From UHGV virus genome UHGV-1558314: a DNA stretch of 64,000 nt; one strand, 5' to 3'. The translations under genes were made by a program, and so were the position numbers. Positions within the stretch are counted from its first letter, which is position 1, and each line of letters begins with the position of its first letter. The notes under the pieces were generated by a model. It saw nothing but the letters and a program-made list of their open reading frames with translations, was not told the DNA's origin and did not search any database. The DNA is from a virus. Below, piece by piece: positions 23,475-56,175 of this stretch.

Positions 23475-24494
23475 CTATTGCTTATGCCAGCCATATGATG
23501 CCTGACCAGCATCATACACTTCTACAAAACCATGGTCGTACATAAAATCTTCATTACGAGTGCCCTTGCCCCCATTAGTACCAAGAATACGGTCTGCACC
23601 ATGCATAAGCAGCATATTATTTGTGATATGTTGCTTTGTCAGCATATTGAACCAATGTTTGCTATATGACAAGCCAAGACCATCAAAGCCCAGCTTTGTG
23701 TACACGCCACCATCAAACTTGCTCAAATCACAATACGACAACACAGATTCAGGGTCATATGTCTTGATAAAGTGCTTGAATATGCGTTCGGCGCCACCTA
23801 CGACTTTTGTTGCTGCACAAAGACGCAGTAGTTCATACTGATATCGCTTATTGTATCGTGGACGACCAAATGTCATAAGCTGATGTATGACATAGCCGCC
23901 AAGCAATTCAAGTGGATGGCCTTCAATCAACGCAAGATTGATAAAATTGCCTGAGCACTTGCCTTGCAAATGATGTTCAATCAAAAATTGATTTGCAGTA
24001 TACTTGTCAATTTCAACAACTTTAAGCTTGCGAGCATATACAATCTTTGATTTGTCTACGATTTGATGCTTGATGTGATTGATAACTTTCTTGGCGTCAT
24101 CCCAATCCCACACATGAATGCAATGAAAGCCTGCAGCTTTTGCAATGTCTGTTTTCTTTGCATGAATATCACAAGGCAAATGCGAATCTTTTGCAGCATG
24201 CATAAATAGATGCTCAAATGAATGCGTGCTATTATGTGAAAATGTGGGATTGATGTTGATGACGATGTTGTCATGTCTAAAATCGAAGACTTCATCACCA
24301 ATAACAAAGTTGCGCTCAAAATCTATACCGACATGTTTGAGTAATACTTGATGCCACACATCTTTATAGGCTGATTCAAGATTGCTTAGCTCATCACAGT
24401 TTGCAATATTTTTGTAACGTTGAATAGCAGCATCAAAGTCAAGATTGACTTCAGCGTAGTCTGCATTTTTATCGTAGTGAAATTTTGAGCTCAT
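23475..24494 (-). CDS. Homing-endonuclease-like protein, family paralog 1 (Vsr/DUF559-like nuclease motif)
   Basis: IVININPTFSHNSTHSF ... GFHCIHVWDWDD and C-terminal VEVYDAGQ shared with paralogs; ATG at 24492-24494. Confidence 0.75.
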   Translation of the reverse strand: MSSKFHYDKNADYAEVNLDFDAAIQRYKNIANCDELSNLESAYKDVWHQVLLKHVGIDFERNFVIGDEVFDFRHDNIVININPTFSHNSTHSFEHLFMHAAKDSHLPCDIHAKKTDIAKAAGFHCIHVWDWDDAKKVINHIKHQIVDKSKIVYARKLKVVEIDKYTANQFLIEHHLQGKCSGNFINLALIEGHPLELLGGYVIHQLMTFGRPRYNKRYQYELLRLCAATKVVGGAERIFKHFIKTYDPESVLSYCDLSKFDGGVYTKLGFDGLGLSYSKHWFNMLTKQHITNNMLLMHGADRILGTNGGKGTRNEDFMYDHGFVEVYDAGQASYGWHKQ

Positions 24495-24515
24495 GTGTAT
24501 AATTTGTATGAGATT

Positions 24516-24544
24516 ATTGTACAACATGCAAATGCATGTTGCAT
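24516..24544 (-). promoter_or_regulatory. Sigma70-like promoter (ATGCAA-N17-TACAAT)
   Basis: Plus attgtacaac at 24516-24525, ttgcat at 24539-24544. Confidence 0.5.
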
Positions 24545-24598
24545 TTGATGCAAAGTACTGCGTACACAACATAAAGTACAAGTTTGCTTTTGACAGAC

Positions 24599-25621
24599 TT
24601 ACTTTGTATTGCTACGCGTCATTGTTAAATGACCGCAATCATACACATCAACTTCTGTTTTGCCAAGCATGCATGTATGACAATTTATTTTGAAATCTAC
24701 TGCAGTGTAGTCAGGATAGTTTAGCGGAGATTCTTTTGACAAATCAATTTCAATTGTGTCAGTAGTTTTAAGTTGTTCAGTGCCTGCAATGATATCTGCA
24801 ATGAGATTGATAACATCTTCTTGTGAATCCCAGTCAAACACAGTTATGCAACGATAGCCTGCATCAAGCGCAAGTTTTGTTTTGTTGTAATGGTATTGCG
24901 CATCAAGTGGCTCATTTTTGTCAGACAATTTTGTTGCATATCGAAACCCAAGCGTGCTGTTATGCGATACGGTAGGATTGATTTCTACAAGCAATTTATG
25001 TGTGCCATCAATATCATATGACAAATCATATGAATAACGTTGAATTCTAACTGCGTCAAGCTGCATGTCAATGTGTAAATGACGCAATATTATTGCATGC
25101 CAATGCTTGTTGATGCCCGATATTATATTTGCAGCTTCCATGCATTTTGGATGCATTACAAAATACGGCACGCCAAAGCGTTCTTGTATTGTTTTGTATG
25201 CTTTTGCATTAGAATCTTTACCATAAATGCTGCCATAACGCTTAAGCTTTGTAGCAATCAACTTGTCTATGTCACCCATAGCATTGCCAAAGCGCTCAAT
25301 CTTATGCTGTTTAATGGCATCTTTGTCGCCAAACATATGACCATATCGAGACATCTTTGTTGCTTTGACTGCATTGATGTTGCAACCTGCACCATATCGA
25401 GCATGCATAGTTTGCATGCGTTTAGCAATGTGCTCTTGTGATTGCTTAATTTGTTCGGTGCCAAATTTGCGCAAATTATTGATACGCTTAGTAACATCTT
25501 GTTTAATGACTGAATGCGTGGTTGTTCGCTTGCCAAGTCTTACACATTCTGTAGTTTTGAGCAATGTATCTCGTTCAAACTCAATTTGTGCAATTCGTGC
25601 AACAATTTCTTTAGATGTCAT
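24599..25621 (-). CDS. Homing-endonuclease-like protein, paralog 2 (tandem K/R-Y/F-G repeats + Vsr-like nuclease motif)
   Basis: Repeats ...MSRYGHMFGD...IERFGNAMGD...LKRYGSIYGKD...; LLVEINPTVSHNSTLGF ... GYRCITVFDWD ... VDVYDCGH; ATG at 25619-25621. Confidence 0.75.
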   Translation of the reverse strand: MTSKEIVARIAQIEFERDTLLKTTECVRLGKRTTTHSVIKQDVTKRINNLRKFGTEQIKQSQEHIAKRMQTMHARYGAGCNINAVKATKMSRYGHMFGDKDAIKQHKIERFGNAMGDIDKLIATKLKRYGSIYGKDSNAKAYKTIQERFGVPYFVMHPKCMEAANIISGINKHWHAIILRHLHIDMQLDAVRIQRYSYDLSYDIDGTHKLLVEINPTVSHNSTLGFRYATKLSDKNEPLDAQYHYNKTKLALDAGYRCITVFDWDSQEDVINLIADIIAGTEQLKTTDTIEIDLSKESPLNYPDYTAVDFKINCHTCMLGKTEVDVYDCGHLTMTRSNTK

Positions 25622-25640
25622 TTTTAATAGCATATTGATA

Positions 25641-25670
25641 ATTATACAACATACAAATGAGTTTTGCATT
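25641..25670 (-). promoter_or_regulatory. Sigma70-like promoter (-10 TATAAT variant)
   Basis: Plus attatacaac at 25641-25650, ttgcat at 25665-25670. Confidence 0.4.
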
Positions 25671-25700
25671 TTTGATGTAGCAATTGCTTGCACAGTTTGC

Positions 25701-25737
25701 AAAAAAGAACCGCTTGCAATCTAATTGCAAGCGGTTC
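25701..25737 (-). terminator. Rho-independent terminator (14-bp stem + U tract on minus strand)
   Basis: aaaaaa gaaccgcttgcaat cta attgcaagcggttc. Confidence 0.7.
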
Positions 25738-25966
25738 AATGAATACGTTTGTCAGAAACTGTCAATGGTGCAATCGCTTGAAGAGTTAACTGAACAACTT
25801 GTTGATGCGATTGCTGCATTGGTGACTACCAAGCAGCCCATTGAACATTGGATTCGACATCAACGTCTTTGTGGTTGTTGTTGAACTCCCCAAGCCAGCA
25901 AGTATCATTTAGCAAGTTTCCAAACTTAACGTACTTGTCGTTCCCCGGCTTGGGTGGTGCAGGTTG

Positions 25967-27682
25967 TCAAATCCAGCCGTAGTCGCTGTGGATAGCGAAG
26001 GTGAGGTAAGCCAACTCGGGATACATACCCGTCTCCGCGAGAGCGTAATCCGACTCAATCAGCAACTTTGGCGCTGCTGTTCCTTCGGCTGTTAATTCCA
26101 CACTTGATGCAAGGTCATATGGCATGAATACACATCCCTGGTTGACATTCTCTACGTCAACACCGTCAGCAGTCTTGTTCGTACGAAGAACGAGAACAGT
26201 GTTGTCGTTCAGCGGCTGCTTAGGATTGCAATAGATTTTAATGCCAGCAAGGTCACCTGCGTAATACAGGTTTTTGTTGTCCTGTACCAGCGTATTGTCA
26301 AGAGCTGCAACAAAGTTTTTCTGAGCCTTAATTGCAACCAAGGCAATCGTATTGACCACAGCAGCATCACCAGCACCGAAACGCGACAGGTTGCCAATGA
26401 TTGCCGAAGCAGCCAGGATACGCGTTGCGATACGAGCCTGACGGGTAATCTGGTTCTCAGCCGAGCTGTTCGATTCAGCGTTCGGAACCATGCCGAATTC
26501 AGCCGTACGGTCTACACCCATCTTGTCGACAAATGCAGGAGCTTGGAATTCCGAGAATGCCTTGGCAGTCGAACCAGCGTAGCCAATGTACAAGTTCAGG
26601 TTGTAGCCCTGAGCAGCCAACAGCTGAGCATGTGTCGTAACACCAAGTGCACGCATGCGCTTCAGACCATTGTCATTGATTGACTGCGTGATTTCATTCT
26701 GCATTGCATTCTTGATGATTGCAACTGCATCCAAACCGCGAGCACGGAGGTCCTTAACCTGGCGACGAGTCAGAGCGCCCCAAGTCTGGTACGTCTTAAC
26801 TTCGATAGCCTTTGAGAAGGTGCGGAGCTCCAGCATGTTCGGGTTGCCAGCCTCAGCCTCAGAACGAGACATTGGGTTGCCGTCAAGGTCATCCATTGCA
26901 GCGAAGCCGTGGATGTGTTCGTCACCAGCCGAAACCAGGTCGAACATAACCTCAGTCATACCAGTCAGCAAGTCAGTTACAGCACCTGCAGCGTCAACCG
27001 AGTAGATTTTCGATGCAGCCATTGCAACATCAGCCAACGACTTGTCAGGAGCAACAGTCATTGCGCCACCTGCGCCTACAGTGTACACGCCCTCATTGCG
27101 AACTACGAGGTAGCCTGCAACACGCGATACCTGTACAAACGTTACTTTGGCAGCAAGCTCACCAGCAGCTGAACCGCCGATGTACAGAACTTGACCCTTC
27201 TTGAGGCCACGAACCATTGTCTGCGAAGCAACATTGTACAGTTCCTTCCACTTGATGAGGAAGTAGCGAGGACCCTTGGCAACATTCAGCTTGCCGCCAC
27301 CATACACGTAGTCTACATAGTCCAGCTGAACCAGCGGGCTGTAAACAGGAATGGTCGGGAGCAGGTCGAACAGAATCGTGTTGGCTGCGATGTTCATGTT
27401 CAGAGCCAGAACATTGGCAGCTACATCGATTGAACCACGCTTACGCGACGGGTCATGGAACTGTGCTTGCGTGCCTGGGTCAGCAGGGAAAGCGACCGGA
27501 CCTACGCCATTGAGATTCTGCGAATACGTCGACTCAAACGACTCGTTCATATACTGAACGTTCTGAGCGATTGATGCGAGCAGATACTTCTTAGCGGGCG
27601 AGAGCTTGGAGTCAAACGACTCATCAAGAACAGGGCCCCACTTTTTCAGCAATGCATCAATCTGTGTACGTTTTGCGTTCAT
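25967..27682 (-). CDS. Putative major capsid protein (571 aa) with N-terminal propeptide cleavage motif
   Basis: Markedly GC-richer codon usage than neighbours; N-terminal ...NVQYMNE/SFEST matches the recurrent xNE motif; late-type promoter upstream; family assignment not verified. Confidence 0.7.
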   Translation of the reverse strand: MNAKRTQIDALLKKWGPVLDESFDSKLSPAKKYLLASIAQNVQYMNESFESTYSQNLNGVGPVAFPADPGTQAQFHDPSRKRGSIDVAANVLALNMNIAANTILFDLLPTIPVYSPLVQLDYVDYVYGGGKLNVAKGPRYFLIKWKELYNVASQTMVRGLKKGQVLYIGGSAAGELAAKVTFVQVSRVAGYLVVRNEGVYTVGAGGAMTVAPDKSLADVAMAASKIYSVDAAGAVTDLLTGMTEVMFDLVSAGDEHIHGFAAMDDLDGNPMSRSEAEAGNPNMLELRTFSKAIEVKTYQTWGALTRRQVKDLRARGLDAVAIIKNAMQNEITQSINDNGLKRMRALGVTTHAQLLAAQGYNLNLYIGYAGSTAKAFSEFQAPAFVDKMGVDRTAEFGMVPNAESNSSAENQITRQARIATRILAASAIIGNLSRFGAGDAAVVNTIALVAIKAQKNFVAALDNTLVQDNKNLYYAGDLAGIKIYCNPKQPLNDNTVLVLRTNKTADGVDVENVNQGCVFMPYDLASSVELTAEGTAAPKLLIESDYALAETGMYPELAYLTFAIHSDYGWI

Positions 27683-27770
27683 GATTGAATTTGTTTGTTA
27701 TTGAAAGTGAAACATATATTTCTGTATAATATGTATAGAACTACTGATATTGATTGAATTGTGAAAATGG

Positions 27771-29060
27771 TCATTTTTCAATCTTTTTGAGCAATGCATG
27801 ACCGCAATCATAGACTTCGACGAAGCCTGAAGCAATCAATGAGTCAACATCTATAGAAGACGTTCGTATAATATGTTCGTGTGTCTTGATATTGTATAGA
27901 TGACACTGAACCCATGTTTTGACGACTTCATAATTTGGATACAATCGAGGGTCTTCTTTTGACAAATCAAGTTCTATGACATCATCAGTTTTGAGCTGCT
28001 CAGTTTTGTTTATGACATCTCTAATGTGCAGCAACATATCATATCTACAATCCCAGTCAAATATTGTTATACATCGATAGCCATTGCGTGCTGCAACATC
28101 TGTTTTGAATTTGTGAGCATACGCAGGTTTGGCGTCATTATCAACAGAATGCCCAGTTATGTAACCAAAGCCCTTTGTTGCATTGTGTGTAACAGTTGGA
28201 TTGATTTCAATTACAACAGCATCTTTTCGCAAATCATATAACAAGTTCTCAATAGGATGCTCAGTAACAAAATCAAGATTGCAAGAATGTTTCAAATCCC
28301 ATTGCCACGACATATTGATGTTTGATGTCAACCTTGCAGATGCTTGCGGCAATTGCAATGCATGTTCTACACCATAGCGTTCACGTAATGTTGCATGAGC
28401 CCTTTGCATATTTTGCATTGCGGGACCCCAATGCTCAAATTTTGTAGCATTTATCTTTGCAATTTTGTCTGGTAGCTTATTTGTACTATCTACACCATAT
28501 TTAATAAGACAACTGATGCGAATATTGTATTGTCGTTTTATTCGAGAATGTGACGTAGCACATCTACTAAATCGTTCAAATGGTGTTGATGCAATCAATG
28601 CATCTCGTTCTGACTCAAGAGCTTTGACATGTTCAAGCACTTCTGCTGGTACATTATCATAGTCAATCACATATTGCTGACGTGGTTGCGTTACATGAGT
28701 TTTGCCGTGTGTCTTAAGCTTATTGATTTGTATGCTATACTTTCTGCGTATATGTGGATGTCTTGATGCATCAGATTGCGCAATTTCATGCTCTCGTTGC
28801 TCTTCAAGTTTAGCTATTTGCTCAACAATAGCTGGTTCAATGTCTGGTTTGTCTGATATGACTATGTTTTTAAGCTCATCAAGACGCTTGTTGAGATATT
28901 TGACACGTCTTGTATATGTTATCTTTGCAACTTGATGGTTTGTATGATGCTTGCCTACTTGCTGTTCTGGTTGATTCAGCGTGTCATCAAGGCGTTGCTT
29001 AGCGAGCTCAAATTCATTATCAAGCCATGCTTTATGCGCATCAAATTCATCTTGTGTCAT
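27771..29060 (-). CDS. Homing-endonuclease-like protein, paralog 3
   Basis: VVIEINPTVTHNATKGFGY ... GYRCITIFDWDCRYD ... VEVYDCGHALL. Confidence 0.75.
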   Translation of the reverse strand: MTQDEFDAHKAWLDNEFELAKQRLDDTLNQPEQQVGKHHTNHQVAKITYTRRVKYLNKRLDELKNIVISDKPDIEPAIVEQIAKLEEQREHEIAQSDASRHPHIRRKYSIQINKLKTHGKTHVTQPRQQYVIDYDNVPAEVLEHVKALESERDALIASTPFERFSRCATSHSRIKRQYNIRISCLIKYGVDSTNKLPDKIAKINATKFEHWGPAMQNMQRAHATLRERYGVEHALQLPQASARLTSNINMSWQWDLKHSCNLDFVTEHPIENLLYDLRKDAVVIEINPTVTHNATKGFGYITGHSVDNDAKPAYAHKFKTDVAARNGYRCITIFDWDCRYDMLLHIRDVINKTEQLKTDDVIELDLSKEDPRLYPNYEVVKTWVQCHLYNIKTHEHIIRTSSIDVDSLIASGFVEVYDCGHALLKKIEK

Positions 29061-29125
29061 ATGTGTGTGTAGTGCTTGTTAATCATGTTATATATCATAT
29101 GACAAATTACTACTTTGCATATAAC

Positions 29126-29159
29126 AAAAAAGAAGCCAAGTCGTTTTGACTTGGCTTCA
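29126..29159 (-). terminator. Rho-independent terminator
   Basis: aaaaaa gaagccaagt cgttttg acttggcttc. Confidence 0.6.
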
Positions 29160-29189
29160 AATTATTCTAACTTATTGATAGTTAATAAG

Positions 29190-29765
29190 TTAAAATTGAG
29201 AACCTACGACACGTGGCACTGCAAGTTCGCTGGTAAGAACGGCTTGACAAGTGTAAATGTCGTCACTATTCTTGTCATGTGAATCGACTGCGCTGATAGG
29301 ACCCTTAGGGAATCCATTCTTGTACGACGTTACTCTCCAGGCTGTTCCAACCTGATTATTTTCAACGAGAATCCAAGAACCCACATAGTTTTTCTTGAGA
29401 CCCATGGCTCCCGTGAGAGGATTCCTGCGTTTCGCATTCCAACTTTGGAATGCATTGTAAATCACAGGGTCATTGGTGTCTGGTCCATGCAAGTTCAGAT
29501 TCATTGTGATAGTCAGGTTGTGAATGTTGCTGACTGTCAATGCTGAGAACTGACGAGACTGATTTTGCGCAACTTTTTGTGAAACCACATCAGGCGCATT
29601 GTCAAGTGTGCCCAAACCTGAAATTGACTGAATTTGCTCATCAATTGTATCTGGAATCACAACGCCTGCAGGTGGCATAAGTGTGAGCTCGAACAATGAA
29701 CTGAACACGGGTTCAGCATATTCGGCAGTCACTTCGCTGTTTTTGATATGCGGTAACTTCGGCAT
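29190..29765 (-). CDS. Hypothetical protein (191 aa); possible tail tube protein
   Basis: Size and position near sheath-like gene; weak FELTLMPPAGVV resemblance to gp19-type tubes; tentative. Confidence 0.55.
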   Translation of the reverse strand: MPKLPHIKNSEVTAEYAEPVFSSLFELTLMPPAGVVIPDTIDEQIQSISGLGTLDNAPDVVSQKVAQNQSRQFSALTVSNIHNLTITMNLNLHGPDTNDPVIYNAFQSWNAKRRNPLTGAMGLKKNYVGSWILVENNQVGTAWRVTSYKNGFPKGPISAVDSHDKNSDDIYTCQAVLTSELAVPRVVGSQF

Positions 29766-29806: not shown

Positions 29807-30556
29807 TCATCGTACAGTGAATGACTTATCATCATCTTCTGTAGTAGTCGGGTCATCAATTACATCGTGGCCAATGCCTGACTCTGGTTCTGGTTCTGGT
29901 TCCGGTTCCGGTTCCGGTTCTGGTTCTGGTTCCGGTTCTGGTTCCGGTTCTGGTTCCGGTTCTGGTTCCGGTTCTGGTTCCGGTTCTGGTTCAGGTTCTG
30001 GTTCCGGTTCCGGTTCTGGTTCTGGTTCCGGTTCTGGTTCCGGCTTGGGCTCTGGCTTGGGCTCTGGCTTGGGCTTCGATGAATAATCAAACATCTTATG
30101 AATCCATTTGCACCACCATTTGCGACATACATGTGTGCCATCATGATAATACGCTTGCAGCTCCATTGGAATTGCATGATATGCTTTGTCATGTGACATA
30201 CCTTTGAATACTCGCAAGTACACATAGCACAAGCAATATGCAATGTAGTACATAAGCGGTGATGCAAGCAGCCACCACCAGCTAAGCACATTGCATGCTG
30301 CAAGCACAATAAGTACAAGCAACGTCGCAAGTGTTACGAAGATGAATTGCTTTGCATGCACAGCTTCATGCTTCAATGTCTCAGAATATCTACTAAGTGT
30401 GTCATCATATGACTTATCACTTCTTATGAAGCACATTGCACACAACGACATTGCATAATAATGTGAAAATGGAATGTATGGCTGGTCGATGACAAGCATT
30501 GGTCCAGCAAACCACAGTCGCCACTGAGATTTCTTTGGCAGTGTTGCAGTTTTCAT
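29807..30556 (-). CDS. HExxH-motif membrane protein with C-terminal (KPEP)/(PE)n repeat tract
   Basis: [10 protein letters not shown] followed by hydrophobic helices; C-terminal about 60-aa PE repeat encoded by the hexanucleotide SSR. Confidence 0.7.
29884..30074. repeat. Hexanucleotide microsatellite (GGTTCY)n about 30 units plus (GGCTTGGGCTCT)n
   Basis: Direct reading of ggttctggttccggttcc...; encodes (PE)n on minus strand. Confidence 0.9.
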
Positions 30557-30619: not shown

Positions 30620-33457
30620 CTACTCTGCAGATGCGCCTTGCAGTGACAATGTTGTACGATGTACACCAATTCGAATGCCTTGAGCATTGATAATTTCAGT
30701 GTCAAGTACAATGAATCCGCGAGCAATCGTTTCATCATCATTGTTGCTGCTATCACAGACATTCGTGTACGAAACTGCGCCACCGGCTGCAACGATGCCA
30801 TCCATGAAATTGTCTGCTTTAGTCTTAACCTGCAAACGAACATTTGCAGTGTTTCGCTTGTACTGGGCAGACTTCAAGTATGGCTCGATGTTGTCAGCGA
30901 CGTAGATGAGCAACTCGAGATTTTCGATGTAGCTGAATGCGCTGGTGTAAGCTACTTGTGCAGAACGAGATGTCAGCATTGTGATGACGCCTTGGTCTGA
31001 ACGAGCAAGCATATTCCAACCTGCAGGTTCAAGGTCATCCATATCAGACCCTTCACCTTGTGAGACAATCATGTCAATGTCGGTTACGCCAACACCAGAC
31101 AGTGGCCACTCATCACCAGCAACGACGTCAAAGACATGCTTGCCTGCTTCTATATGCTTTCTCATGAAGACATTCGACAAGATACCTGTTGCAGGAATCG
31201 TCATATCATCAATGCCATCATTGTAGCGAACATTGGCTACATATGTGATGAACGGTGCGCCATCAGTTTGACCTGCGAAGCTGAACAACTTGCTGTATGG
31301 TTTATCGGTGTTACCACCTGCAGCACAGTACTTAGACTCAATTGGGTCACCTGCATTGTCCTTGAAGTACGGGTCAGTTGAGCGGAACAAGTCATACTTG
31401 GTTGGCAGAGCAGAGAATGCGATTGCACGTTTTGAATCATTGCAAATCTTTGCAAACTCGTACTTTTGATTTGCTGCAATGTATGTCTTGAATGGGTCAA
31501 CTACGTAACGCCATTGACATTGATTGTGGTCCATCAAGCTACGATAAACGCCGCCTGAAATGAGAGCTTGCAGTACTTCTGTCTGACGTGCAGATGTGCC
31601 ATCAACAAATTGAGTTGCACGAAGAGCTACGCCATGCAGATATGCGCCCTTGAAGAACTTAACTTGGTCAACAAGCTTCGTCAATGACCAAACAGACGCC
31701 TGCGAGGCGTACTTCATCATTGAGCCATCTGCAAGTTCAAATTCGCCTTCAGCACCCGCAGCTTTGTATGCCAATGCACCAGTGAATTGATATTCAATCA
31801 ACACTTTGTTTTCTGCAAATGCATCGTAGACATTCTTCTTCTCAAGTGGCGACAAATCAGCTTCAGTGATTGTGATTGGCATGCCACCATACTTGAGCGG
31901 CTTATCCAACGGCAGACCATTAGAATCATATTCAACAAGGTCACCACCATATGAAATTGTCTCACCTGCAGCTCTTGCTTTACGAGCTTTCGTTGATGAA
32001 GTTTCTACATCTGCAGACTCTTCGCCGCCAATTGTGACTGTTGAGCCTTGCGGATAGATGAAGTTGCCCTTTGCATCCTGAGGGAATGCAACCTTTGCAC
32101 CTGATTCGTCAATGTACATTGGAATGCCGTCTTCCTTGCCAATGACAGGAACTGCGCGATATTCAGCTACAACTGCGCGACTTGTGCAGCGTACTGGTGA
32201 ACCATCAGCGCCAATGAAGATGTCGCCAAGTGAAATTGGCAACACTGGTGCAACAAATGAAGTCTTTGAAGCTTCACCTGGCTGCACAAATGGAACCATC
32301 ACATTAACAAACTCAGATGACACGAAGTCCTTGAGCTGTTCTTTTGTGATTGCGACATCTGTTGCTGTTGGCGTGCAGTCAATCTTTTCAGGATTGATGT
32401 CAGTTGACGGACGAGCCATGCCAAGATATTGATGTGTAGCATCATCAGCAAACAATGGACCCGCAGCTTCATCTACAGAAATGTAGTTCGAACCAAAGAT
32501 GTCCACTGCACGTTGGAAACGAGCGTCTTCAATGTCATTTGAATTGTAGAACTCGTCAACCTTGTCAGGGTCAATCTTACACATGATACCTGTCGTGTCT
32601 GACACTGCATTCACAGCAGTTTCCAATGACAGTTTGTTGCCATTGATATCAAGCAAGTCAGGAATCAATGAGCCAGATACACGACCCATGTAGCCAGATG
32701 CTGCAAGCTTTGACAGTGCCTCAGGACCATACATGCCATCAACTTGTGCACGGATGCCATCCTTTGTGAAGTACTTGCCATATACAGTCGAACCTGCAAG
32801 TGATTCATAGTTCGTCAGTTTTTCAGAGAAAAACCAAACATCAACCATATAGTCTGACACAAGGTCATTGCAGTTCACGCCGGGTACATACATTGATGGG
32901 AAGCGGTCTTGAACTGACTTGATGTCATAATCATAGCCAGTCAATGTTGTCGGCGTAATGAAGATTGTTGCAGACTTGTTTGTAAGTGTTGAGAAGTTGA
33001 GCAGCTGTACGGGGTCAGCGCCAACAGCATTGAGCAGATTCAATGGCTCAGCTTTCCAGAAGTTTGATGTATCATAGACATCCTTAAATGGAACGTCTAC
33101 AGGTGAGCCATCTTCTCCTGAGCTGTTTGCAGCAAAAGTCACTCGTGACAACACATCGCTATCATTGAATGAGCGCAAGTTCAACACAAGAATTGGGCTT
33201 GTTGCAAGCATTTGCTCTGCAATGAGACCAGCGAAACAGCCGGCACGCTCCAAACGCTTGTCACGTTGACCGAAAATTTCATGCAGCTGGTCTGCATCTT
33301 CAACAAGCACGGCGCGATTGACCGGACCGTTCTTCCACTGGCCTGGCAGCAATCGAAGTGTTTGAGCGGGCAGTGAGTCAAGGTGACTTGCGTCAATGAA
33401 CAGACGATATGTCCCGACTGACTTGAACCGTTCAAATAAAGAAGTGTTATTTGCCAT
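30620..33457 (-). CDS. Putative tail sheath protein (946 aa)
   Basis: N-terminal GQWKNGPVNRAVLVEDADQLHEIFG resembles sheath motif; ATG at 33455-33457 (MANNTSLF); late-type promoter; tentative. Confidence 0.65.
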   Translation of the reverse strand: MANNTSLFERFKSVGTYRLFIDASHLDSLPAQTLRLLPGQWKNGPVNRAVLVEDADQLHEIFGQRDKRLERAGCFAGLIAEQMLATSPILVLNLRSFNDSDVLSRVTFAANSSGEDGSPVDVPFKDVYDTSNFWKAEPLNLLNAVGADPVQLLNFSTLTNKSATIFITPTTLTGYDYDIKSVQDRFPSMYVPGVNCNDLVSDYMVDVWFFSEKLTNYESLAGSTVYGKYFTKDGIRAQVDGMYGPEALSKLAASGYMGRVSGSLIPDLLDINGNKLSLETAVNAVSDTTGIMCKIDPDKVDEFYNSNDIEDARFQRAVDIFGSNYISVDEAAGPLFADDATHQYLGMARPSTDINPEKIDCTPTATDVAITKEQLKDFVSSEFVNVMVPFVQPGEASKTSFVAPVLPISLGDIFIGADGSPVRCTSRAVVAEYRAVPVIGKEDGIPMYIDESGAKVAFPQDAKGNFIYPQGSTVTIGGEESADVETSSTKARKARAAGETISYGGDLVEYDSNGLPLDKPLKYGGMPITITEADLSPLEKKNVYDAFAENKVLIEYQFTGALAYKAAGAEGEFELADGSMMKYASQASVWSLTKLVDQVKFFKGAYLHGVALRATQFVDGTSARQTEVLQALISGGVYRSLMDHNQCQWRYVVDPFKTYIAANQKYEFAKICNDSKRAIAFSALPTKYDLFRSTDPYFKDNAGDPIESKYCAAGGNTDKPYSKLFSFAGQTDGAPFITYVANVRYNDGIDDMTIPATGILSNVFMRKHIEAGKHVFDVVAGDEWPLSGVGVTDIDMIVSQGEGSDMDDLEPAGWNMLARSDQGVITMLTSRSAQVAYTSAFSYIENLELLIYVADNIEPYLKSAQYKRNTANVRLQVKTKADNFMDGIVAAGGAVSYTNVCDSSNNDDETIARGFIVLDTEIINAQGIRIGVHRTTLSLQGASAE

Positions 33458-33560
33458 GTTCGTTATCGTATTTGTAAATTGTGAAATGTTGCTTTGTTTG
33501 ATTATAACTTGATATATGTATGTATATGATGACATCAAACATGTTGTTGACCAAAATCAA

Positions 33561-43073: not shown

Positions 43074-43523
43074 TCATTTGAAGAATCGTTCAGTTATGAT
43101 TTTGAACTTAACATTTTGTTGTTTGCAATATGCAATTGCGGCATTCCACTTTGCGACATTTTTGCAATATGTTTCTTTCGCATAATTTGACGCAGACCGA
43201 CTTGGGCATTGCGTTTCATGCCATGGTTTCACCTCAACGACATATGTAGAATCTGCGGTTTTGAACAAAAAGTCGGGCCAATATGTGTGCGTTACGCCAT
43301 CAAGCTCATATGCAATTGGCAGTGTCTCAGATGACCAAGCAAGAACCTTTGAACTCATATCGCAAAGCTTGCAAAATCTGAATTCAAGTGAACTGCGGTA
43401 TATGATTGTCTTGTCTGTCGCGTCTTTGCCTTTGTACTTATCTGGGTTCATGCATCTGTAGTAGCCTTGCTTGTAGGGCCCTGATTTGTTTGGCTTAAGT
43501 TGCTTAATGTTCATTGCAGTCAC
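43074..43523 (-). CDS. PD-(D/E)xK-family nuclease (149 aa)
   Basis: YWPDFLF ... YVVEVKP (PD ... ExK) core. Confidence 0.7.
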   Translation of the reverse strand: MTAMNIKQLKPNKSGPYKQGYYRCMNPDKYKGKDATDKTIIYRSSLEFRFCKLCDMSSKVLAWSSETLPIAYELDGVTHTYWPDFLFKTADSTYVVEVKPWHETQCPSRSASNYAKETYCKNVAKWNAAIAYCKQQNVKFKIITERFFK

Positions 43524-45856: not shown

Positions 45857-46480
45857 TTACGCTTTGTTGATTTCAGATGGCATTCTGAACTTGATGTCAT
45901 TGTACACAAATGTCAATGTGAATGTCATCACGTTCTGGTCTACACGAGTTTTGTCATATGTGAGTTCAGAAATTGCAGAAAACACGACATCAATGAAGTC
46001 GATGCCAAACAATGGTTTCTTTGCACCACCATATGTTGCTACAAATCTGCAAGGCTGAAAGTAGATAGTTTCACGTTTATCATTAGCGTACACAAACAGC
46101 GACTCCAAGCAACAAAAATAATTGAGCCCACCATTCGTCAATCTGCATGTCACTTGGATTCGCTTATCAAGTGCTTGATGAATTGTTTTGCTGCCCTTAT
46201 GAAACTGTGTAATCGACTTCTTCATGCCGCTGTCATCAAGAACTTTATTGACATTTTGAGTGACAATGGGCATTGATATGCCCATCAATGACACAGACTG
46301 AATTGAATCATGCAACAAGTCATTGATGTCATAAATGATTTGTGTTGGTTGTTGCACAAACACTTTATTGTATGTCTCAGCAATGTCTTGCGGAATCAAA
46401 TCAATTGGCAAGTCAAAGCGAAACTGGTCAGAACGTGTATCGAGAATGAGCATATTTTTGATAATTTGTTTATGTACCAT
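45857..46480 (-). CDS. Hypothetical protein (207 aa)
   Basis: ORF track; no motif. Confidence 0.65.
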   Translation of the reverse strand: MVHKQIIKNMLILDTRSDQFRFDLPIDLIPQDIAETYNKVFVQQPTQIIYDINDLLHDSIQSVSLMGISMPIVTQNVNKVLDDSGMKKSITQFHKGSKTIHQALDKRIQVTCRLTNGGLNYFCCLESLFVYANDKRETIYFQPCRFVATYGGAKKPLFGIDFIDVVFSAISELTYDKTRVDQNVMTFTLTFVYNDIKFRMPSEINKA

Positions 46481-47736
46481 TAACTGTCATACGACCAGTG
46501 ACCACAGTCATACACTGGCACAAATCCAGTGTCAAGCATTTCTTGCTCATTAAAGTCATCATCAAGCAAGTGTTCACCCGATTTTGTATTAACCCAGTGC
46601 TTCTTAATTGTGCATTCATCAACCGCAAAGGGATTAAGTACATTGTCAGTACAGTCAATGAACGCATCATTCAAATGCGCTTCAATGATATGAAGCACAA
46701 TTTCTTGGTCGTGCCAATCAAATATCATGAGTGGCGTGTAGCCACATGCAATTGCAAGTTGTTGCTTCCACCAATGATAGTTTGGCTATTTTGCTTCTGC
46801 AGCATTTCGTTTAAAGCCATACACGCTATTATGAGTATGCGTCGGGTTAACGTCAATTAGCAGATTGCCATAATACAGGTCATATGACGTTATGCCAACA
46901 CCATGTTCAAACTCAAAATGCACACCAAGATGTTCTTCAATGTATGATTGCCACCATCTGTTTGGCGCAGATATGATTTGCCCATTTGCTTGCATACATT
47001 TATTTGTCATGCAAAACCATGGCACACCGTAACGTTCCATACAGGTTTTTGAAATTGCAGCAAGCCATTCATCTTTGTCTCTATGCGGCCATGCATAACC
47101 ATAACGCAGACGGCATGTTTGTTGAGCTTTAGCAACGATTGGCGCTAAACGTTCACCGTATATTTCACGTTTAGTTGCGATGGCTTTGCGTGGATTAGTC
47201 CATCCAGCATCACCCCATCGCTCAAGCTTCGTTTGCTGAGATTTTTCAACAATCAGTTCAAGATTCTCACCATATTTTTGACGACGAGTTTGCATTGCTG
47301 CAACATAATCTGTAATGCATCTATGGCCATACAAACGTTCTTTTGTCGCACATTGAACATCTACTGGACCTTGTGGATAGCCATAGCGTTCCATATTCGT
47401 TTGACGAATATGTGCTTTATCGCCATATGAACTGCCGTAGCGTGCAACTTTAGTGGCAATTGTTTGCTTGATGTTGCCTGCTTTAGAACCATAACGAGCT
47501 TCTTTAGTTGCTACGCATTTTTGTTTGACTTCTGCTCTGTTCCAATTATGCTCAACGCCATGTTTACGAAGATGGCCAATTTTCATGTTGTACACGTTTT
47601 TGATATGACCATGAGATGTCTTACGTGGTGCATATCGTACAAATGGTGTTTCTGCAAGCAACTTATCTCGTTCAGCTTCAAGCTCTTTAATTCGAGCTTC
47701 AAGAGCTTCACCAGTCAAAGGCTCTACATGTTTCAT
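46480..47736 (-). pseudogene. Homing-endonuclease-like paralog 4 interrupted by a single in-frame TAG (46786-46788)
   Basis: ORFs 46786..47736 and 46480..46728 are in the same frame; intervening codons read *PNYHWWKQQLAIACGYTPLMIFDW and align with intact paralogs. Confidence 0.7.
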
Positions 47737-48233
47737 TCGTGTTTGCCAGTTTGAAATAACGAATCAATTGGGATGTGAATACCAGGTTTGGATTGAATGT
47801 TCCATCCGCGCGCCAAACCATTAAGTACGCAGCTCGTAAGGTAAGAAAACGCGTTTTGAGTTACTGTTGGGTCAAACATTTGCCACTTTGACGCCAAAAT
47901 TAGCATGGCTTCTGCTGCGACATCTGCTTGCAAGTCTTTGTCTCTGTAGTATAAACGTCTCTGCACATGTTTGATAAGCAACTCAAACATGTGTATAAGT
48001 TTATCTGACAGCTGCCCAGATACTTTGCATGCGCATATTTCTGCACAAAGTTCTTTGTTGTTAATGTAATAGTTTGATGGCTGACCACGTTTCTTTGTGT
48101 TTGCTGCTTCTTCACGAAGTTGGTCTTCAAGCTGTGTCAACATGTCATCATCTGACACATATTGAATATGCTTATCTTCTGGCAGTTTAGATTCTATTGG
48201 TTGTAAGTTTTGCAGTGGCATAACAGTGAGCAT
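47733..48233 (-). CDS. Late-transcription sigma factor, T4 gp55-like
   Basis: PSNYYINNKEL matches T4 gp55 N-terminal KYNYVNNKEL; QNAFSYLTSCVLNGLARG region similar; ATG at 48231-48233. Confidence 0.7.
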   Translation of the reverse strand: MLTVMPLQNLQPIESKLPEDKHIQYVSDDDMLTQLEDQLREEAANTKKRGQPSNYYINNKELCAEICACKVSGQLSDKLIHMFELLIKHVQRRLYYRDKDLQADVAAEAMLILASKWQMFDPTVTQNAFSYLTSCVLNGLARGWNIQSKPGIHIPIDSLFQTGKHE

Positions 48234-48249
48234 TAAAATTCCTATATAA

Positions 48250-48360
48250 ATTGTACAACATGCAAAATGTTTTTGCACCATTTTGATACAACATGCATTG
48301 CATATTTGCAATGATGCAAAGTACGATGTACACAACATGCATTGCATATTTGCAATCATA
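48250..48360 (-). repeat. Three tandem promoter-like repeat units (about 35-40 bp each)
   Basis: attgtacaacatgcaaaatgtttttgcacc / gatacaacatgcattgcatatttgcaatg / gtacacaacatgcattgcatatttgcaatc. Confidence 0.55.
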
Positions 48361-51369: not shown

Positions 51370-52662
51370 CTACAACAATGACGGCACTCGTTGAGTTTCA
51401 AGTGGGTCGCTGACATTGATGCCTGTGTATGCAACAAGTCGTTGTATTGGGCCAAGTACGAGTTTTTCGAACATGAGTCGTTTGTTCATTGGCGGCACAT
51501 CTGGCATATACTTCGGTGTCGGCATTTCGCCTGGTGCAAAGCCAAATGCATCGCAATATTGACGAGAGCCAATTGGGATATTTGACAAATCTGACTTTGC
51601 TCTGTCAACAAAGTAGTAGAACACTCGACCGCCTTCAATCAATGGGTATCGTGTTTCCAATCCATGAGCTTTTACAAGACGATTATGCCAACAACATGCC
51701 CTGTACTGAGGCAGTACACCTTTTGCTAACTGCCATTCGCCATCATAGCTTAACACATAGTCATGATACTTGTTTGCATTGACATATGCACAAAGTTTTT
51801 CCAAGTCTTGCTCAGCTTCAAAGCGTTTCCATAATTTCTGTATGAGCTTTGGATATGTCGCAGAAGTCAATTCACCTCTGAACATTTTTTTGAATGCATA
51901 ATCAAGCATTTGCCTAACAAGCATTGATGAGCCTGTTTGAATAAGTTCGATGCCCTTACCTTGAATATGCTCAGTAGGGTCTTCAAATACTCGACCATCT
52001 ACATATATTTGAGACTTCAAATACTTTTTCTTTTGGGCAAATAATGCAGTATCAGAAATCGTCTCAAGGTCGAACATTAGCACAGAATCTCCATGACGCT
52101 TTGCAAGGTCATTTGCATATGACCTATTGAACAGTTCTTCCATACGATATTTGAATATCGCAAGAATCAAGTCATACCAATTTTTGCCTGTGTAACCAAT
52201 TGACTTAACTGTCGGCTCAAAGTGAATGTACAAAGAGTCTGTGTCAATATACAGCACTTTGTCTTCATAGGGTTCTTGCTTTGGCGACACAGACAAATCA
52301 AAATTGCCTTTCAATTTGGGGTCATTGCGCAGCTTTTCATGCAATTCATAATCACACCACCATTTATTGTTGAGATAGTCATTTGCTACTCGTTCGCCAA
52401 AGTGAATGAAGTTACGCCCTTCTGCAGTAATTGATTCTGCAACTGCCATATTGAAGAAGTGATAGAATCGATTACTTGTCGCACCATAAATACTGTTCCT
52501 TAGTGTTTTGAACGTCACCTGCAATGACGCATGTTTAAGCGACTCTTGTATTGCAAAGCCACGTAATTCAAATAGACGCTCAGTAGACAACTGACTCAAA
52601 TCGCCAGTTAAATCTACTCCATCTATTTCAATTTTTGACATGTCTATCTGAGCTTCTGCCAT
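51370..52662 (-). CDS. Family-B DNA polymerase, C-terminal part (motifs B and C)
   Basis: FKTLRNSIYGA (KxxxNSxYG) and LYIDTDSLYI (DTDS). Confidence 0.9.
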   Translation of the reverse strand: MAEAQIDMSKIEIDGVDLTGDLSQLSTERLFELRGFAIQESLKHASLQVTFKTLRNSIYGATSNRFYHFFNMAVAESITAEGRNFIHFGERVANDYLNNKWWCDYELHEKLRNDPKLKGNFDLSVSPKQEPYEDKVLYIDTDSLYIHFEPTVKSIGYTGKNWYDLILAIFKYRMEELFNRSYANDLAKRHGDSVLMFDLETISDTALFAQKKKYLKSQIYVDGRVFEDPTEHIQGKGIELIQTGSSMLVRQMLDYAFKKMFRGELTSATYPKLIQKLWKRFEAEQDLEKLCAYVNANKYHDYVLSYDGEWQLAKGVLPQYRACCWHNRLVKAHGLETRYPLIEGGRVFYYFVDRAKSDLSNIPIGSRQYCDAFGFAPGEMPTPKYMPDVPPMNKRLMFEKLVLGPIQRLVAYTGINVSDPLETQRVPSLL

Positions 52663-52683
52663 AAGGTATCTTATTTAATTATT

Positions 52684-52712
52684 ATTGTACAACACACATT
52701 GCAATTTTGCAA
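52684..52712 (-). promoter_or_regulatory. Sigma70-like promoter (TTGCAA-N17-TACAAT)
   Basis: Plus attgtacaac at 52684-52693, ttgcaa at 52707-52712. Confidence 0.55.
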
Positions 52713-52726
52713 TATGTGTGTTAAAC

Positions 52727-52762: not shown

Positions 52763-52801
52763 CAGGTATCTTCACATGTATTTGAGTTGATTACGATGTG
52801 A

Positions 52802-53629: not shown

Positions 53630-53697
53630 CTTGTATCTATGTTGTTGATTTTCAATTTAATATATTGAACAACATTTGTTGACATTTTGCAACATTG

Positions 53698-54072
53698 TCA
53701 TCGATTGTCGCCTGACCCATGCAGTACGCCTCGTAATTTTCGAGACTGTAGTTTCTGAATGTTAAGCTGACAAATGTCAGTTAAGCTGTAGCCCAAATCA
53801 TGTGCAAGAGTTGCAGCATACCACATGACATCGCTAAGCTCTTTTGCGATTTCCTTGCGAATGTCTTCATTGTCAAAATCACCATTCTTGTCTCGAATGA
53901 CTTTTTTGACTTTGTCTGCAACTTCGCCTGCTTCACCCGTCAAGCCAAGCGTTGGATAGACAATTGCAGCTGATTTAGGATACACTGCGCTATCAAGTGC
54001 AGCAGTCTGATATTCATCAATGGTTGAAATACAAGTGTGGTCAATTACACCATGTTCATCTCGTTTAAGCAT
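53698..54072 (-). CDS. mazG: MazG-like nucleotide pyrophosphohydrolase
   Basis: LTGEAGEVADKVKK ... KELSDVMWYAATLAHDLGYSL. Confidence 0.75.
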   Translation of the reverse strand: MLKRDEHGVIDHTCISTIDEYQTAALDSAVYPKSAAIVYPTLGLTGEAGEVADKVKKVIRDKNGDFDNEDIRKEIAKELSDVMWYAATLAHDLGYSLTDICQLNIQKLQSRKLRGVLHGSGDNR

Positions 54073-54073
54073 A

Positions 54074-54565
54074 TCATTTACGTTTTTGTTTGACTCTTAA
54101 TCGTTTTTGCATAAATGCTCTTGTAGCTTCACCAAAAGCCATCTCGTCTCGTTCGCCACCACAAAGCTTTGCAAGCTTATTGAATGTGTCTTGGTCAATC
54201 ATTGTGTACGTTGAGTTGTTGACCACATGCAATGCAAACTGAATCAGCGGTGCGCCTGGCTGCAAGCAGAACGGCTCTTTGCCCGCATTGTACACTGCAA
54301 GATGAATCTCGCCATGATAGTCTGAATCTACAAACTCACTTGTTTTGATGATAAGATGATTTCGTGAAATGCCCGACTTATTGTAGGCAATCAATGCATG
54401 ACAGGCAGGCACAAGTGCTTTGATGCCAGATGGAATTGCAATGCCCTCACCAGGTTGCAGCATTGTTTGCACAAAATCATTGGGTATGCAAAAGTCCCAT
54501 GCGCCAGATTCTGCTGTTGACTTAAAAGGACTTTCTACATTTCTGCATTTTGCAAAGAATAACAT
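54074..54565 (-). CDS. dUTPase / dCTP deaminase superfamily protein
   Basis: GAWDFC (motif 1-like), IAIPSGIKAL, VDSDYHGEI (motif 3), PGAPLIQFAL (motif 4-like). Confidence 0.75.
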   Translation of the reverse strand: MLFFAKCRNVESPFKSTAESGAWDFCIPNDFVQTMLQPGEGIAIPSGIKALVPACHALIAYNKSGISRNHLIIKTSEFVDSDYHGEIHLAVYNAGKEPFCLQPGAPLIQFALHVVNNSTYTMIDQDTFNKLAKLCGGERDEMAFGEATRAFMQKRLRVKQKRK

Positions 54566-54588
54566 ATTAAGTATGTGTTTGTATGTTG

Positions 54589-54939
54589 TTAGTACATTTC
54601 TCGTTTAACAAGAGCTTTGCGTTTTGAGCGTAACCCTGCCCTATTACGTAATTCTACTGACCAATCACGAATCATTTGCCATGCAATCCCACCACGTTGA
54701 ATACCACCGTGCTTGAACATTTCATTGCAAATACCTTGAATAAACACCGCATCAGACTTTGTCAATGCGTCAACAATTTGACCATGGTTGTCTTCTGTCT
54801 TGACATCATTACAGAGCTTAAGTTCATCTACTGAAAGTTCGCCAAGCAGCTCATAGTAGTATATGAGAGCTTTGCGTGCGGCAATTGCTTTTCTTGAATT
54901 GCCAGAATAAGACAAAGTTACATGTTTGCTCATATTCAA
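54589..54939 (-). CDS. Hypothetical protein (116 aa)
   Basis: ORF track; no motif. Confidence 0.55.
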   Translation of the reverse strand: MNMSKHVTLSYSGNSRKAIAARKALIYYYELLGELSVDELKLCNDVKTEDNHGQIVDALTKSDAVFIQGICNEMFKHGGIQRGGIAWQMIRDWSVELRNRAGLRSKRKALVKREMY

Positions 54940-54959
54940 TTATTGTTATTATATGTTGA

Positions 54960-54988
54960 TATTGTACAACATGTGTTAACTTTTTGCA
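54960..54988 (-). promoter_or_regulatory. Sigma70-like promoter (ATGCAA-N17-TACAAT)
   Basis: Plus attgtacaac at 54960-54969, ttgcat at 54983-54988. Confidence 0.5.
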
Positions 54989-56175
54989 TGACCACAATCA
55001 TACACCGCAACATAGCCAGCATCAATCATCTCTTGCTCATCTTGTCCGCAATCTTCAATATGTTCTTTTGTCTTCAAATGACACCAGTGTTTGCGAATTG
55101 TTGACTTGTCATCTGACAATTGCGGATTGAGTGCGAAGTCAGTTGAGTCTACTGGTTCACCTGCAAGATGCTTTCTAATGACATCAATGACAACATCAAA
55201 TGGCATCCAGTCAAACACTGTAATGCAAGTGTAGCTGTGTTTGATAGCAAGTTGTGTTTTGTTAAAATGGTTGTCATATGGTCGTTGCCAATTATGATTT
55301 GCATTGAACACAATATTTGCAAAACTACGCGTGCTATTATGAGAAATAGTTGGGTTAAGTTCAATTAGCAACTTATGCGATTTGCAAACAATGTCATATG
55401 ACAATGACGTGTTCTCAAATGTAAATTCTTGCTCAAAATGCACATCAAGGTTATCAAATAGCATGTTAAGCCTTGTGCATATTTTTGTATTGTGTGCAGA
55501 CTTTGCTTTAGATTTTGCTCTGCATTGAGGCAATTGGCATGGCCACACTACACCATGACGTGACAATGTTGTTGCACGAATTGCGTCAAGATTCGTTGAT
55601 GGATTGCCATATCGAGCTATTCGAGTTTGCCTTGCTTTGTCTATATTGCCTGGGCCTGCATTGCCCCATCGCTGCAACTTTGTTTGTCGAGCTTGTTCAT
55701 GATTGCTGTAATATGGGTCTCCATATCGTTCAAGCTTTGTTTGCTTTAACTTACTCATGTCGCCAAGCCCATTGCCATACTTAGCACGCTTTGTTTCTAT
55801 GCCTTTCTTTAGATTGCCTCGTTTGTTGCCATATTTTGCAATGTTGTGTGCATTACGTTTTTCAATGTCACCAAACCCATTGCCATATCGTGCAAATTTT
55901 GTTGCTTGCGCTTTTTCAAAATTGACTGCTAATGTGCCATAACGAGCATACTTAGTTGCTTTGCCCTTATCAACGACTTCTTTACGATGCAATGCAGCTT
56001 CAACACCATATTTTCGCAAATTTGTAATTTTTGCATTGTATCGTCGTCTAATTGTTGCATGAGTGTTGTTACGAGACCCTGTTCTGACATATTCAGTTGC
56101 AGCAAGTTCAGCATCACGTAACTGCTCAAGTTCTGCAATTCGTTGTTCAAGTTCAGCGCCTACAAGTGGTTTCAT
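54976..56175 (-). CDS. Homing-endonuclease-like protein, paralog 5, between the two polymerase ORFs
   Basis: Seven about 17-aa repeats with (K/R)YG core; LLIELNPTISHNSTRSF ... SYTCITVFDW ... VAVYDCGH. Confidence 0.75.
   Translation of the reverse strand: MKPLVGAELEQRIAELEQLRDAELAATEYVRTGSRNNTHATIRRRYNAKITNLRKYGVEAALHRKEVVDKGKATKYARYGTLAVNFEKAQATKFARYGNGFGDIEKRNAHNIAKYGNKRGNLKKGIETKRAKYGNGLGDMSKLKQTKLERYGDPYYSNHEQARQTKLQRWGNAGPGNIDKARQTRIARYGNPSTNLDAIRATTLSRHGVVWPCQLPQCRAKSKAKSAHNTKICTRLNMLFDNLDVHFEQEFTFENTSLSYDIVCKSHKLLIELNPTISHNSTRSFANIVFNANHNWQRPYDNHFNKTQLAIKHSYTCITVFDWMPFDVVIDVIRKHLAGEPVDSTDFALNPQLSDDKSTIRKHWCHLKTKEHIEDCGQDEQEMIDAGYVAVYDCGHAKS

Follow-up and report, generated by a model that had tools for sequence, protein, structure and literature searches.

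Five probable homing endonuclease genes, variously gained, replaced and inactivated, in a human-gut jumbo phage

A stretch of 64,000 nucleotides (nt) of the UHGV virus genome UHGV-1558314, referred to here as the window, carries five related genes (g1 to g5) on its minus strand, lodged between conserved phage genes. What these genes are, and how they came to occupy these places, is the question addressed here. Comparison of their sequences, predicted structures and genomic surroundings with those of other phages indicates that they are probably free-standing homing endonuclease genes of the Hef-like lineage, in the Vsr-like EDxHD branch of the PD-(D/E)xK nucleases. The five genes and the make-up of their products, with lengths in amino acids (aa), are the following.

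23475..24494, minus strand: g1, 339 aa; no repeats; about aa 55-150 (about 24045-24332) form a Vsr-like core and about aa 151-339 (23478-24044) a Mom-like GNAT domain
24599..25621, minus strand: g2, 340 aa; an N-terminal helix, about 6 DUF7487-type repeats, a Vsr-like core and a short tail ending in VDVYDCGH
27771..29060, minus strand: g3, 429 aa; a triplicated N-terminal leader module, then about 3 degenerate repeats, a Vsr-like core and a tail
46480..47736, minus strand: g4, 418 codons with an in-frame TAG at 46786-46788; about 10 repeats; a nonsense pseudogene
54976..56175, minus strand: g5, 399 aa; an N-terminal helix, about 9 repeats, then a Vsr-like core spanning about aa 240-340, and a small tail rich in beta structure

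When the five open reading frames (ORFs) were compared by BLASTP with the six-frame translation of the window, each recovered the other four (E from 1e-10 to 1e-79), and nothing beyond these paralogs matched at E<0.01. A hidden Markov model (HMM) of the shared core likewise matched these five loci only (E from 1e-35 to 1e-8), the next match in the window being at E 0.23. The family is therefore real and has exactly five members in the window, at the positions where an initial annotation, made from the sequence alone, had placed five paralogous minus-strand genes. The shared core spans about 100 aa and reads F-E-x-E-F ... Y-D ... h-h-I-E-I-N-P-T-x-x-H-N-S-T ... Y-H-x-x-K-T ... G-Y-x-C-I-x-h-(F/W)-D-W; it is followed by a common C-terminal tail, K-H-W ... 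G-(F/Y)-V-x-V-Y-D-C-G. The motifs that had been quoted for the family are genuine and take the forms hhIE(I/L/V)NPTxxHN(S/A)T, G(Y/F)xCIxhh(F/W)DW and V.VYD(C/A)G. The description of 46480..47736 as a single ORF has to be corrected, given that the in-frame TAG divides g4 into pieces of 316 and 82 aa.

The name of the family comes from database matches and from the Hef literature. The protein encoded by g1 matches PHROG 3339, "homing endonuclease," at 1.5e-42, and those of g5 and g4 do so at 2.2e-7 and 6.6e-5; g2 and g3 have no direct match to PHROG 3339 and match g5 by BLASTP at 3e-50 and 2e-26, respectively. A tblastn search with g1 yielded 396 phage records, including genes annotated as Hef or Hef-like homing endonucleases: Hef34 of Campylobacter phage NCTC12673, F-LimVIII of Dickeya phage LIMEstone1, and genes of Acinetobacter, Klebsiella, Vibrio and Proteus phages. 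In the phage group of NCTC12673, each genome has 10-11 copies. The proposal that the five are free-standing, homing-endonuclease-like genes is supported by these matches. Hef ("homing endonuclease-like function") was defined in the T4-related phage U5, where it cleaves nrdB (PMC2988022, PMC3296691), and Hef-type enzymes were subsequently placed in the Vsr-like EDxHD family, with I-Bth0305I as the prototype (Taylor et al. 2011; PMC3239194). The superfamily is large, as a profile of the g5 type finds 11,234 cluster representatives at E<=1e-3 among 1.84 billion proteins, most of its members being 500-700 aa long.

The AlphaFold (AF2) model of g5, with a mean predicted local distance difference test score (pLDDT) of 81, contains a compact domain whose fold matches 3hrl, 3r3p and 1cw0. 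The model supports the view that the core adopts a Vsr-like variant of the PD-(D/E)xK fold, so the earlier label of a Vsr/DUF559-like nuclease is upheld at the level of fold, and no profile search assigned the core to a non-nuclease family. Neither Pfam Vsr (PF03852) nor DUF559 (PF04480) matches at E up to 1, and a search of NCBIfam gave nothing useful. Across the family, the D of YD, the N of INP, the H of HN and the D of DW are invariant or nearly so, and the upstream E of FExEF is common; g2, g3 and g5 keep all of the family-invariant core residues (D, E, P, H, N, H, K and D/W). The spacing D-x(11-13)-N-x4-H resembles that of D196, N208 and H213 of I-Bth0305I as quoted in PMC3239194. This correspondence of spacing would align a putative active site with these residues of I-Bth0305I.

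The genes adjoining the family members are conserved structural and replication genes, and the family members lie between them. The neighbors to which the comparisons below refer are the following.

25967..27682, minus strand: the major capsid protein gene (phrog_28442, phrog_138), between g3 (upstream) and g2 and g1 (downstream)
30620-33538: the tail sheath gene
47733-48359: a late-sigma-like gene
51370..52662, minus strand: the C-terminal part of a family-B DNA polymerase (phrog_1918 at 1.7e-48)
56184..57725, minus strand: the N-terminal part of the family-B DNA polymerase (PolB), with the exonuclease domain and the start of the polymerase domain (Pfam DNA_pol_B_exo1; phrog_2062 at 1e-59)

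Mobility of the genes is supported by comparison with relatives. Near-identity DNA searches of deposited phages found no close match to the window; closer relatives were found through their proteins, in human-gut metagenomes. Two of the relatives' loci, L005 and L007, belong to a single 174.6-kb IMG/VR contig (IMGVR_UViG_3300045988_152288), on which the neighboring genes are 95-100% identical to those of the window at the protein level. The genes are not found at identical positions in all relatives, as g5 is absent, and g2 and g3 are replaced, in this near-identical genome.

Gain is represented by g5. It occupies exactly the same intergenic position in the window and in L001, a second contig, and is missing from L007, where the flanking genes are 95-100% identical. 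Two features mark the site.

54955..56183, minus strand: the g5 cassette, an insertion of about 1,229 nt relative to L007, consisting of the g5 ORF and about 20 nt with the TGTTGTACAAT element for the downstream gene
56216..56650, minus strand: a divergent tract of about 430 nt at the 3' end of the PolB N-terminal part, directly upstream of g5, covering the codons for DANSLYPS (motif A)

In a three-way alignment of the window, L001 and L007, the cassette sits exactly in the 17-nt spacer between the stop codon of the PolB N-terminal part and the start of the next gene, with boundaries defined to about 5 nt; in L007, the polymerase stop is directly followed by the 17-nt spacer and the next gene. 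The divergent tract shows 71-87% nucleotide identity to both relatives, compared with 96-100% elsewhere, and looks like a co-conversion or recombination tract.

The statement that family members lie inside a split polymerase holds only loosely, inasmuch as five genes separate the two parts and g5 is one of them. The parts are about 3.5 kb apart and enclose, in addition to g5, an ORF of 116 aa, a dUTPase/dCTP-deaminase-like gene (54074-54565), a MazG-like gene (53698-54072) and an ORF of 275 aa. Insertion of g5 was considered as the cause of the split and was rejected, because the split and the four remaining intervening genes are equally present in the relative without g5. In PHROGs, the two polymerase halves form separate families.

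Replacement is seen on both sides of the capsid gene. Over 16 kb around this gene, nucleotide identity to L005 is 93-100%, except in two sharply bounded islands of about 50-60%, which correspond to g3 (about 27850-29200) and to the 5' two-thirds of g2 (about 24830-25645). At these sites, L005 carries family members of 463 and 353 aa that share only their ends with g3 and g2, respectively. A 95.6% identical copy of g3 is found in L014. Upstream of the capsid gene, L006, L011 and L012 have an empty site. The site downstream of the capsid gene exists in five states across the relatives.

State 1: g2 and g1 (window)
State 2: a variant g2 and g1 (L005)
State 3: a single canonical gene of 605 aa with repeats, nuclease and Mom-like domain (L013)
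State 4: a gene of 427 aa with the same core and an unrelated C terminus (L011, L012)
State 5: an N-terminally truncated remnant of the 427-aa gene (L006 9923-10786)

The 427-aa protein (L011 7856-9139 and L012, on the human gut contigs UEOR01000361 and UEPJ01001615) has a core reading YSFDL...IEYCPTISHN...FFVWSWD; the C-terminal domain, about 270 aa long, is unlike Mom and matches nothing in Pfam or PHROG.

The two genes downstream of the capsid gene in the window also bear traces of tandem stacking. The sequence 23415..23464, downstream of g1, is repeated at 24544-24593, downstream of g2, with 76% identity and a spacing of 1129 nt; together with the repeated promoter-like element described below, this spacer repeat identifies g1 and g2 as a tandem array of cassettes of about 1128 nt. 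Family members occupy other contexts too: a 181-kb phage contig has three of them, adjoining terminase, helicase and sigma genes. Synteny of that contig with the window was considered and discarded, because the sampled loci share no other genes, so the contig shows only that other contexts are occupied.

Decay is represented by g4. Its TAG, a single C-to-T change from CAG, separates one half of the nuclease core from the other. L019 has an intact allele of 418 aa, which reads CAG at this codon and differs by 4 nt; another intact allele of 399 aa with one repeat fewer is present in L007, and the identical nonsense allele is present in L018, an independent assembly. Relatives without g4 were sought among viral contigs and by exact-protein look-ups, and only g4-bearing genomes, with intact or nonsense alleles, were found. 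Recoding of TAG as Gln was also considered, since the g4 TAG aligns with CAG and the terminal TAG of g1 aligns with a Gln codon in L005. This was rejected because TAG ends 12 of the 63 long ORFs, including those for the sheath and the polymerase, and the window has no tRNA.

The ratios of nonsynonymous to synonymous substitution rates (dN/dS) relative to the closest allele are 0.03 for g1 (against L005), 0.07 for g3, 0.12 for g5 and 0.28 for g4, compared with 0.05 for the capsid and 0.04 for the sheath. These low values show that the g1, g3 and g5 proteins are maintained by purifying selection; constraint on g4 looks relaxed. The very strong constraint on g1 is striking in a copy that has lost its repeats and a core Glu and stays fixed beside swapped neighbors, and it suggests a role beyond simple homing. 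The copies appear to be at different stages of a life cycle, with g5 polymorphic for presence and absence, g2 and g3 being overwritten, g4 freshly inactivated and g1 stably kept.

The repeats that precede the core in most copies have a period of 18-19 aa. Tandem repeats had been correctly recognized, at a period of 17 aa that proved slightly too short, and the copy number ranges from about 3 to about 10 per gene (about 6 units in g2, about 10 in g4, about 9 in g5, about 3 degenerate units in g3 and none in g1). The repeats had also been left without a match to a named family; they correspond to Pfam DUF7487 (PF24308), which g4 and g5 match above its gathering score of 27 bits (40.4 and 36.0 bits, the latter at 9.2e-9), g3 and g2 match below it (22.7 and 15.1 bits), and g1 does not match in a Pfam scan. 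In g5, a repeat unit consists of a 12-residue helix and a 6-residue loop. DUF7487 was not mentioned in the literature searched; the array is a candidate modular scaffold for DNA recognition.

Taken as homing endonuclease genes, these elements would, by analogy with U5 Hef and I-Bth0305I, spread as follows. In a cell co-infected by a gene-bearing and a gene-less phage, the protein would bind a long site through its helical array of 18-19-aa DUF7487 repeats. The Vsr-like domain would then cut the gene-less genome in or near the neighboring conserved gene, and recombinational repair from the gene-bearing genome would copy the cassette, together with some of its flank, into the intergenic gap.

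Several points weigh against this interpretation. One concerns g1, which lacks repeats and has Asn in place of the nearly invariant core Glu (IEINP to ININP, within IVININPT), yet is the most strongly conserved copy; this profile is better explained by retention for a non-homing role than by selfishness. The family is linked to U5 Hef by way of database annotations and PMC3296691. In searches of PDB sequences, neither direct comparison nor profiles reached Vsr, DUF559, I-Bth0305I (3r3p) or Mom, and only comparison of folds did, so the nuclease assignment of the core depends on predicted structure and the literature. In L001, g5 is accompanied by the PolB flank of the g5-less relative, and the divergent tract is therefore not simply a resistant target allele. 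Ordinary recombination at variable accessory loci would likewise produce presence/absence differences and exchanges of alleles. Finally, cleavage of DNA, the target sites and the binding of DNA by the repeats are extrapolated from homologs.

The strongest competing explanation starts from the second domain of g1. In the g1 model (pLDDT 86), the top PDB match of this domain is Mom of phage Mu (8bv8_A; Foldseek E 5.2e-8), followed by many GNAT acetyltransferases. The g1 sequence also matches the Mom-like phrog_1384 at 0.0045; g1 itself has no Pfam Mom match, and its homolog P0088 matches Pfam Mom (PF25680) at 2.5e-11 with 44 bits, above the cut-off of 27.1. The canonical Hef-like architecture consists of repeats, then the Vsr-like nuclease, then the Mom-like GNAT domain. 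A Mom-family domain is therefore part of the canonical architecture, and many of its polar residues are invariant across 56 homologs. In an hhalign comparison, the family profile aligns weakly with Mu Mom (E 0.066). Of the four residues essential in Mom, R111 and D149 pair with R224 and D256 of g1, both invariant in the family, and S124 and R151 are left unmatched.

Fusions of Mom and restriction endonuclease (REase) domains in jumbo phages, including their occurrence in multiple copies, have been interpreted as weapons resembling restriction-modification systems (Iyer et al. 2021; PMC7824862). By the same logic, the five genes might be REase-fold nucleases, ancestrally fused to a Mom-type GNAT, that attack host DNA or that belonging to superinfecting phages while momylation protects the phage's own. 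The conserved Mom-like residues, the pairing of the two Arg and two Asp residues in the weak alignment and the very strong purifying selection on g1 would all suit such a function. However, all three parts of the canonical architecture occur together in none of the five copies: g1 is without repeats, and g2-g5 are without the GNAT core. In g3-g5, the HMM of the Mom-like domain matches two short C-terminal segments only (profile positions of about 117-140 and 160-180), which indicates that the GNAT core was deleted. With the core lost, g2-g5 could not protect their own genome by modification. Moreover, precise intergenic presence and absence, cassette replacement and nonsense decay form the classic pattern of homing endonuclease genes, and nrdB is the gene on which Hef, the prototype of the family, exerts its homing function (PMC2988022). 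A restriction-type function is thus an improbable explanation for the set, although it is compatible with homing, since homing enzymes bring about marker exclusion, which is one way for phages to compete.

A related and rather more speculative idea, to be regarded as doubtful, is that Hef-like elements are single-chain modules that both cut and protect, with the two tasks divided between genes in this phage. Cutting of naive genomes would fall to the Vsr-like nuclease, and the Mom-type GNAT fused to it would chemically mark the target adenines of the carrier itself. In such a scheme, g1, which keeps all invariant GNAT residues, would act as a protector or regulator in trans, and g2-g5 would represent forms that keep the repeats and nuclease with the GNAT core deleted. 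If true, this would amount to a division of labor within one family of selfish genes. We know of no modification activity for any Hef-like protein.

That the genes are domesticated or inactive relics, either regulators or maturase-like factors derived from homing endonuclease genes that still bind DNA or decaying proteins that no longer cut, is the least probable explanation and quite unlikely for the set as a whole, because, against the g4 pseudogene, the altered core and missing array of the highly constrained g1, and the degenerate repeats and triplicated leader of g3, stand the complete set of invariant core residues in g2, g3 and g5 and the polymorphism of g5 and replacement of g2 and g3, which indicate ongoing mobility rather than the fixation of a domesticated gene; it is plausible for g4 and perhaps g1, not for g2, g3 and g5.

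Read as homing endonuclease genes, the five can be set beside known systems. The closest are the Hef-like genes of T4-related phages, Campylobacter phages NCTC12673 (Hef34) and CP81, Dickeya phage LIMEstone1 (F-LimIII/VII/VIII/X), Klebsiella phage RaK2 and Vibrio phages, together with PHROG 3339; g1 is 27-30% identical to these genes over about 90% of its length. As in those phages, the genes here stand free among conserved phage genes, each genome carries many copies, and copies displace each other at individual sites. They differ from canonical Hef-like proteins, which have 470-700 aa and combine repeats, nuclease and Mom-like GNAT domain, in that none here has all three. The host lineage also differs from that of known Hef-like carriers, being a human-gut jumbo phage distantly related to Sphingomonas phage PAU, Chryseobacterium phage MA9V and Tenacibaculum phage PTm1.

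To I-Bth0305I/EDxHD (3R3P), Vsr (1VSR/1CW0) and DUF559 (3HRL), no sequence or profile match is detectable here; I-Bth0305I is encoded in an intron and binds DNA through NUMOD/helix-turn-helix motifs, whereas the genes described here are free-standing and have an array of DUF7487 repeats. The C-terminal 190 aa of g1 share the Mom-type GNAT fold with Mu Mom (8BV8; PF25680) at about 14% identity, and the fusion of GNAT to a nuclease of the REase fold in g1 is the same architecture as in the jumbo-phage Mom-REase fusions (Iyer et al. 2021). The seg (GIY-YIG) and mob (HNH) genes of phage T4 present the same biology, namely, intergenic cassettes by essential genes, presence/absence polymorphism, co-converted flanks and endonuclease genes that share a site, but their catalytic folds and DNA-binding modules are unrelated to those found here. 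With the HPR/FASTK-RAP proteins of organellar ribosomes (e.g., 9I05 chain Xv), which are eukaryotic RNA-binding proteins, there is no detectable sequence relationship, and the resemblance is probably convergent or very ancient.

The gene class and its fold assignment are already known from the literature, and multi-copy Hef-like genes are common in large phages; the current understanding of homing endonucleases is unchanged by this locus. What is new is the lineage, that of a human-gut jumbo phage, the clear record, at population level, of copies being gained, replaced and lost to decay, and an explicit account of a short form lacking the GNAT domain beside a GNAT-bearing paralog lacking repeats. 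The locus is a natural record, and an unusually clean one, of how homing endonuclease genes pass through their life cycle in an uncultured jumbo phage of the human gut: genomes that otherwise share about 97% identity show invasion, replacement of alleles, stacking in tandem and recent inactivation. The domain composition of the Hef-like family, which is poorly characterized, is documented as well; the GNAT-less short form recurs within the family as a minority (roughly 40 of the best 150 family representatives). The pair of genomes with and without g5 is a concrete substrate for finding a target site.

Among the features around the five genes, a promoter-like element stands out. The element TGTTGTA(C/T)AAT, allowing up to one mismatch, occurs at 18 sites in the window, compared with 4.1 expected, and among the five genes it lies upstream of g1 and g2 only. 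Three of its copies are associated with family members.

24516..24526, minus strand: a TGTTGTACAAT element, 22 nt upstream of the g1 ATG
25641..25651, minus strand: a TGTTGTATAAT element upstream of g2, preceded by the terminator hairpin of the capsid gene (25707-25737)
54961..54971, minus strand: a TGTTGTACAAT element lying downstream of g5, in front of the 116-aa gene, within the inserted cassette and absent from L007

The initial annotation had given each of the five genes its own TACAAT promoter, which is correct for g1 and g2 and not for the other three. The sequence upstream of g3 differs; g4 overlaps its neighbors at both ends, its start with the stop of the sigma-like gene and its stop with the start of the gene that follows; the start of g5 lies 8 nt past the polymerase stop codon. 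Most copies of TGTTGTACAAT are on the coding (minus) strand directly upstream of genes, and further sites, often in the form CATGTTGTACAAT, include 674-684, 10883-10893, 23358-23368, 48250-48260, 52684-52694 and 57714-57724. The element probably serves as a promoter specific to the phage, and the sigma-like factor that the phage itself encodes possibly recognizes it.

Most minus-strand genes have no recognizable Shine-Dalgarno sequence before their start codons (e.g., at 24495-24515, 25622-25640 and 27683-27700). For the capsid protein, identity is 33-37% to the counterparts in Chryseobacterium phage MA9V, Sphingomonas phage PAU and Tenacibaculum phages, whose genomes are about 220 kb in size (by tblastn, 37% identity to the major capsid protein of Chryseobacterium phage MA9V-2). 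The missing Shine-Dalgarno sequences, the capsid relatives infecting Bacteroidota and the related contigs from the human gut together point to a Bacteroidota host.

Four other genes of the window deserve mention. The 650-aa protein encoded downstream of g1 (21270-23222; L005 12506-14263) contains a segment resembling DUF5856 and starvation-inducible regulators; it differs from its L005 ortholog by an internal indel of about 65 aa and is 78% identical at the protein level, with most of the DNA above 93%. Within the ORF at 29807-30556, whose product is a predicted membrane protein, a long tandem repeat of hexa- and dodecanucleotides (29883-30076) specifies a tract of Pro and Glu (PEPEPE...). This tract differs in length from that of L005, the protein being 249 aa long in the window and 231 aa long in L005. 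The remaining two are further genes of nuclease type. One, a plus-strand ORF at 37708-38376, has a borderline RuvC match of 22.2 bits, at the cut-off. The other, at 43074-43523, encodes a protein with a PD-(D/E)xK domain resembling the N-terminal domain of Tn7 TnsA, as identified by a Pfam match on the identical gene in L018 and L019.

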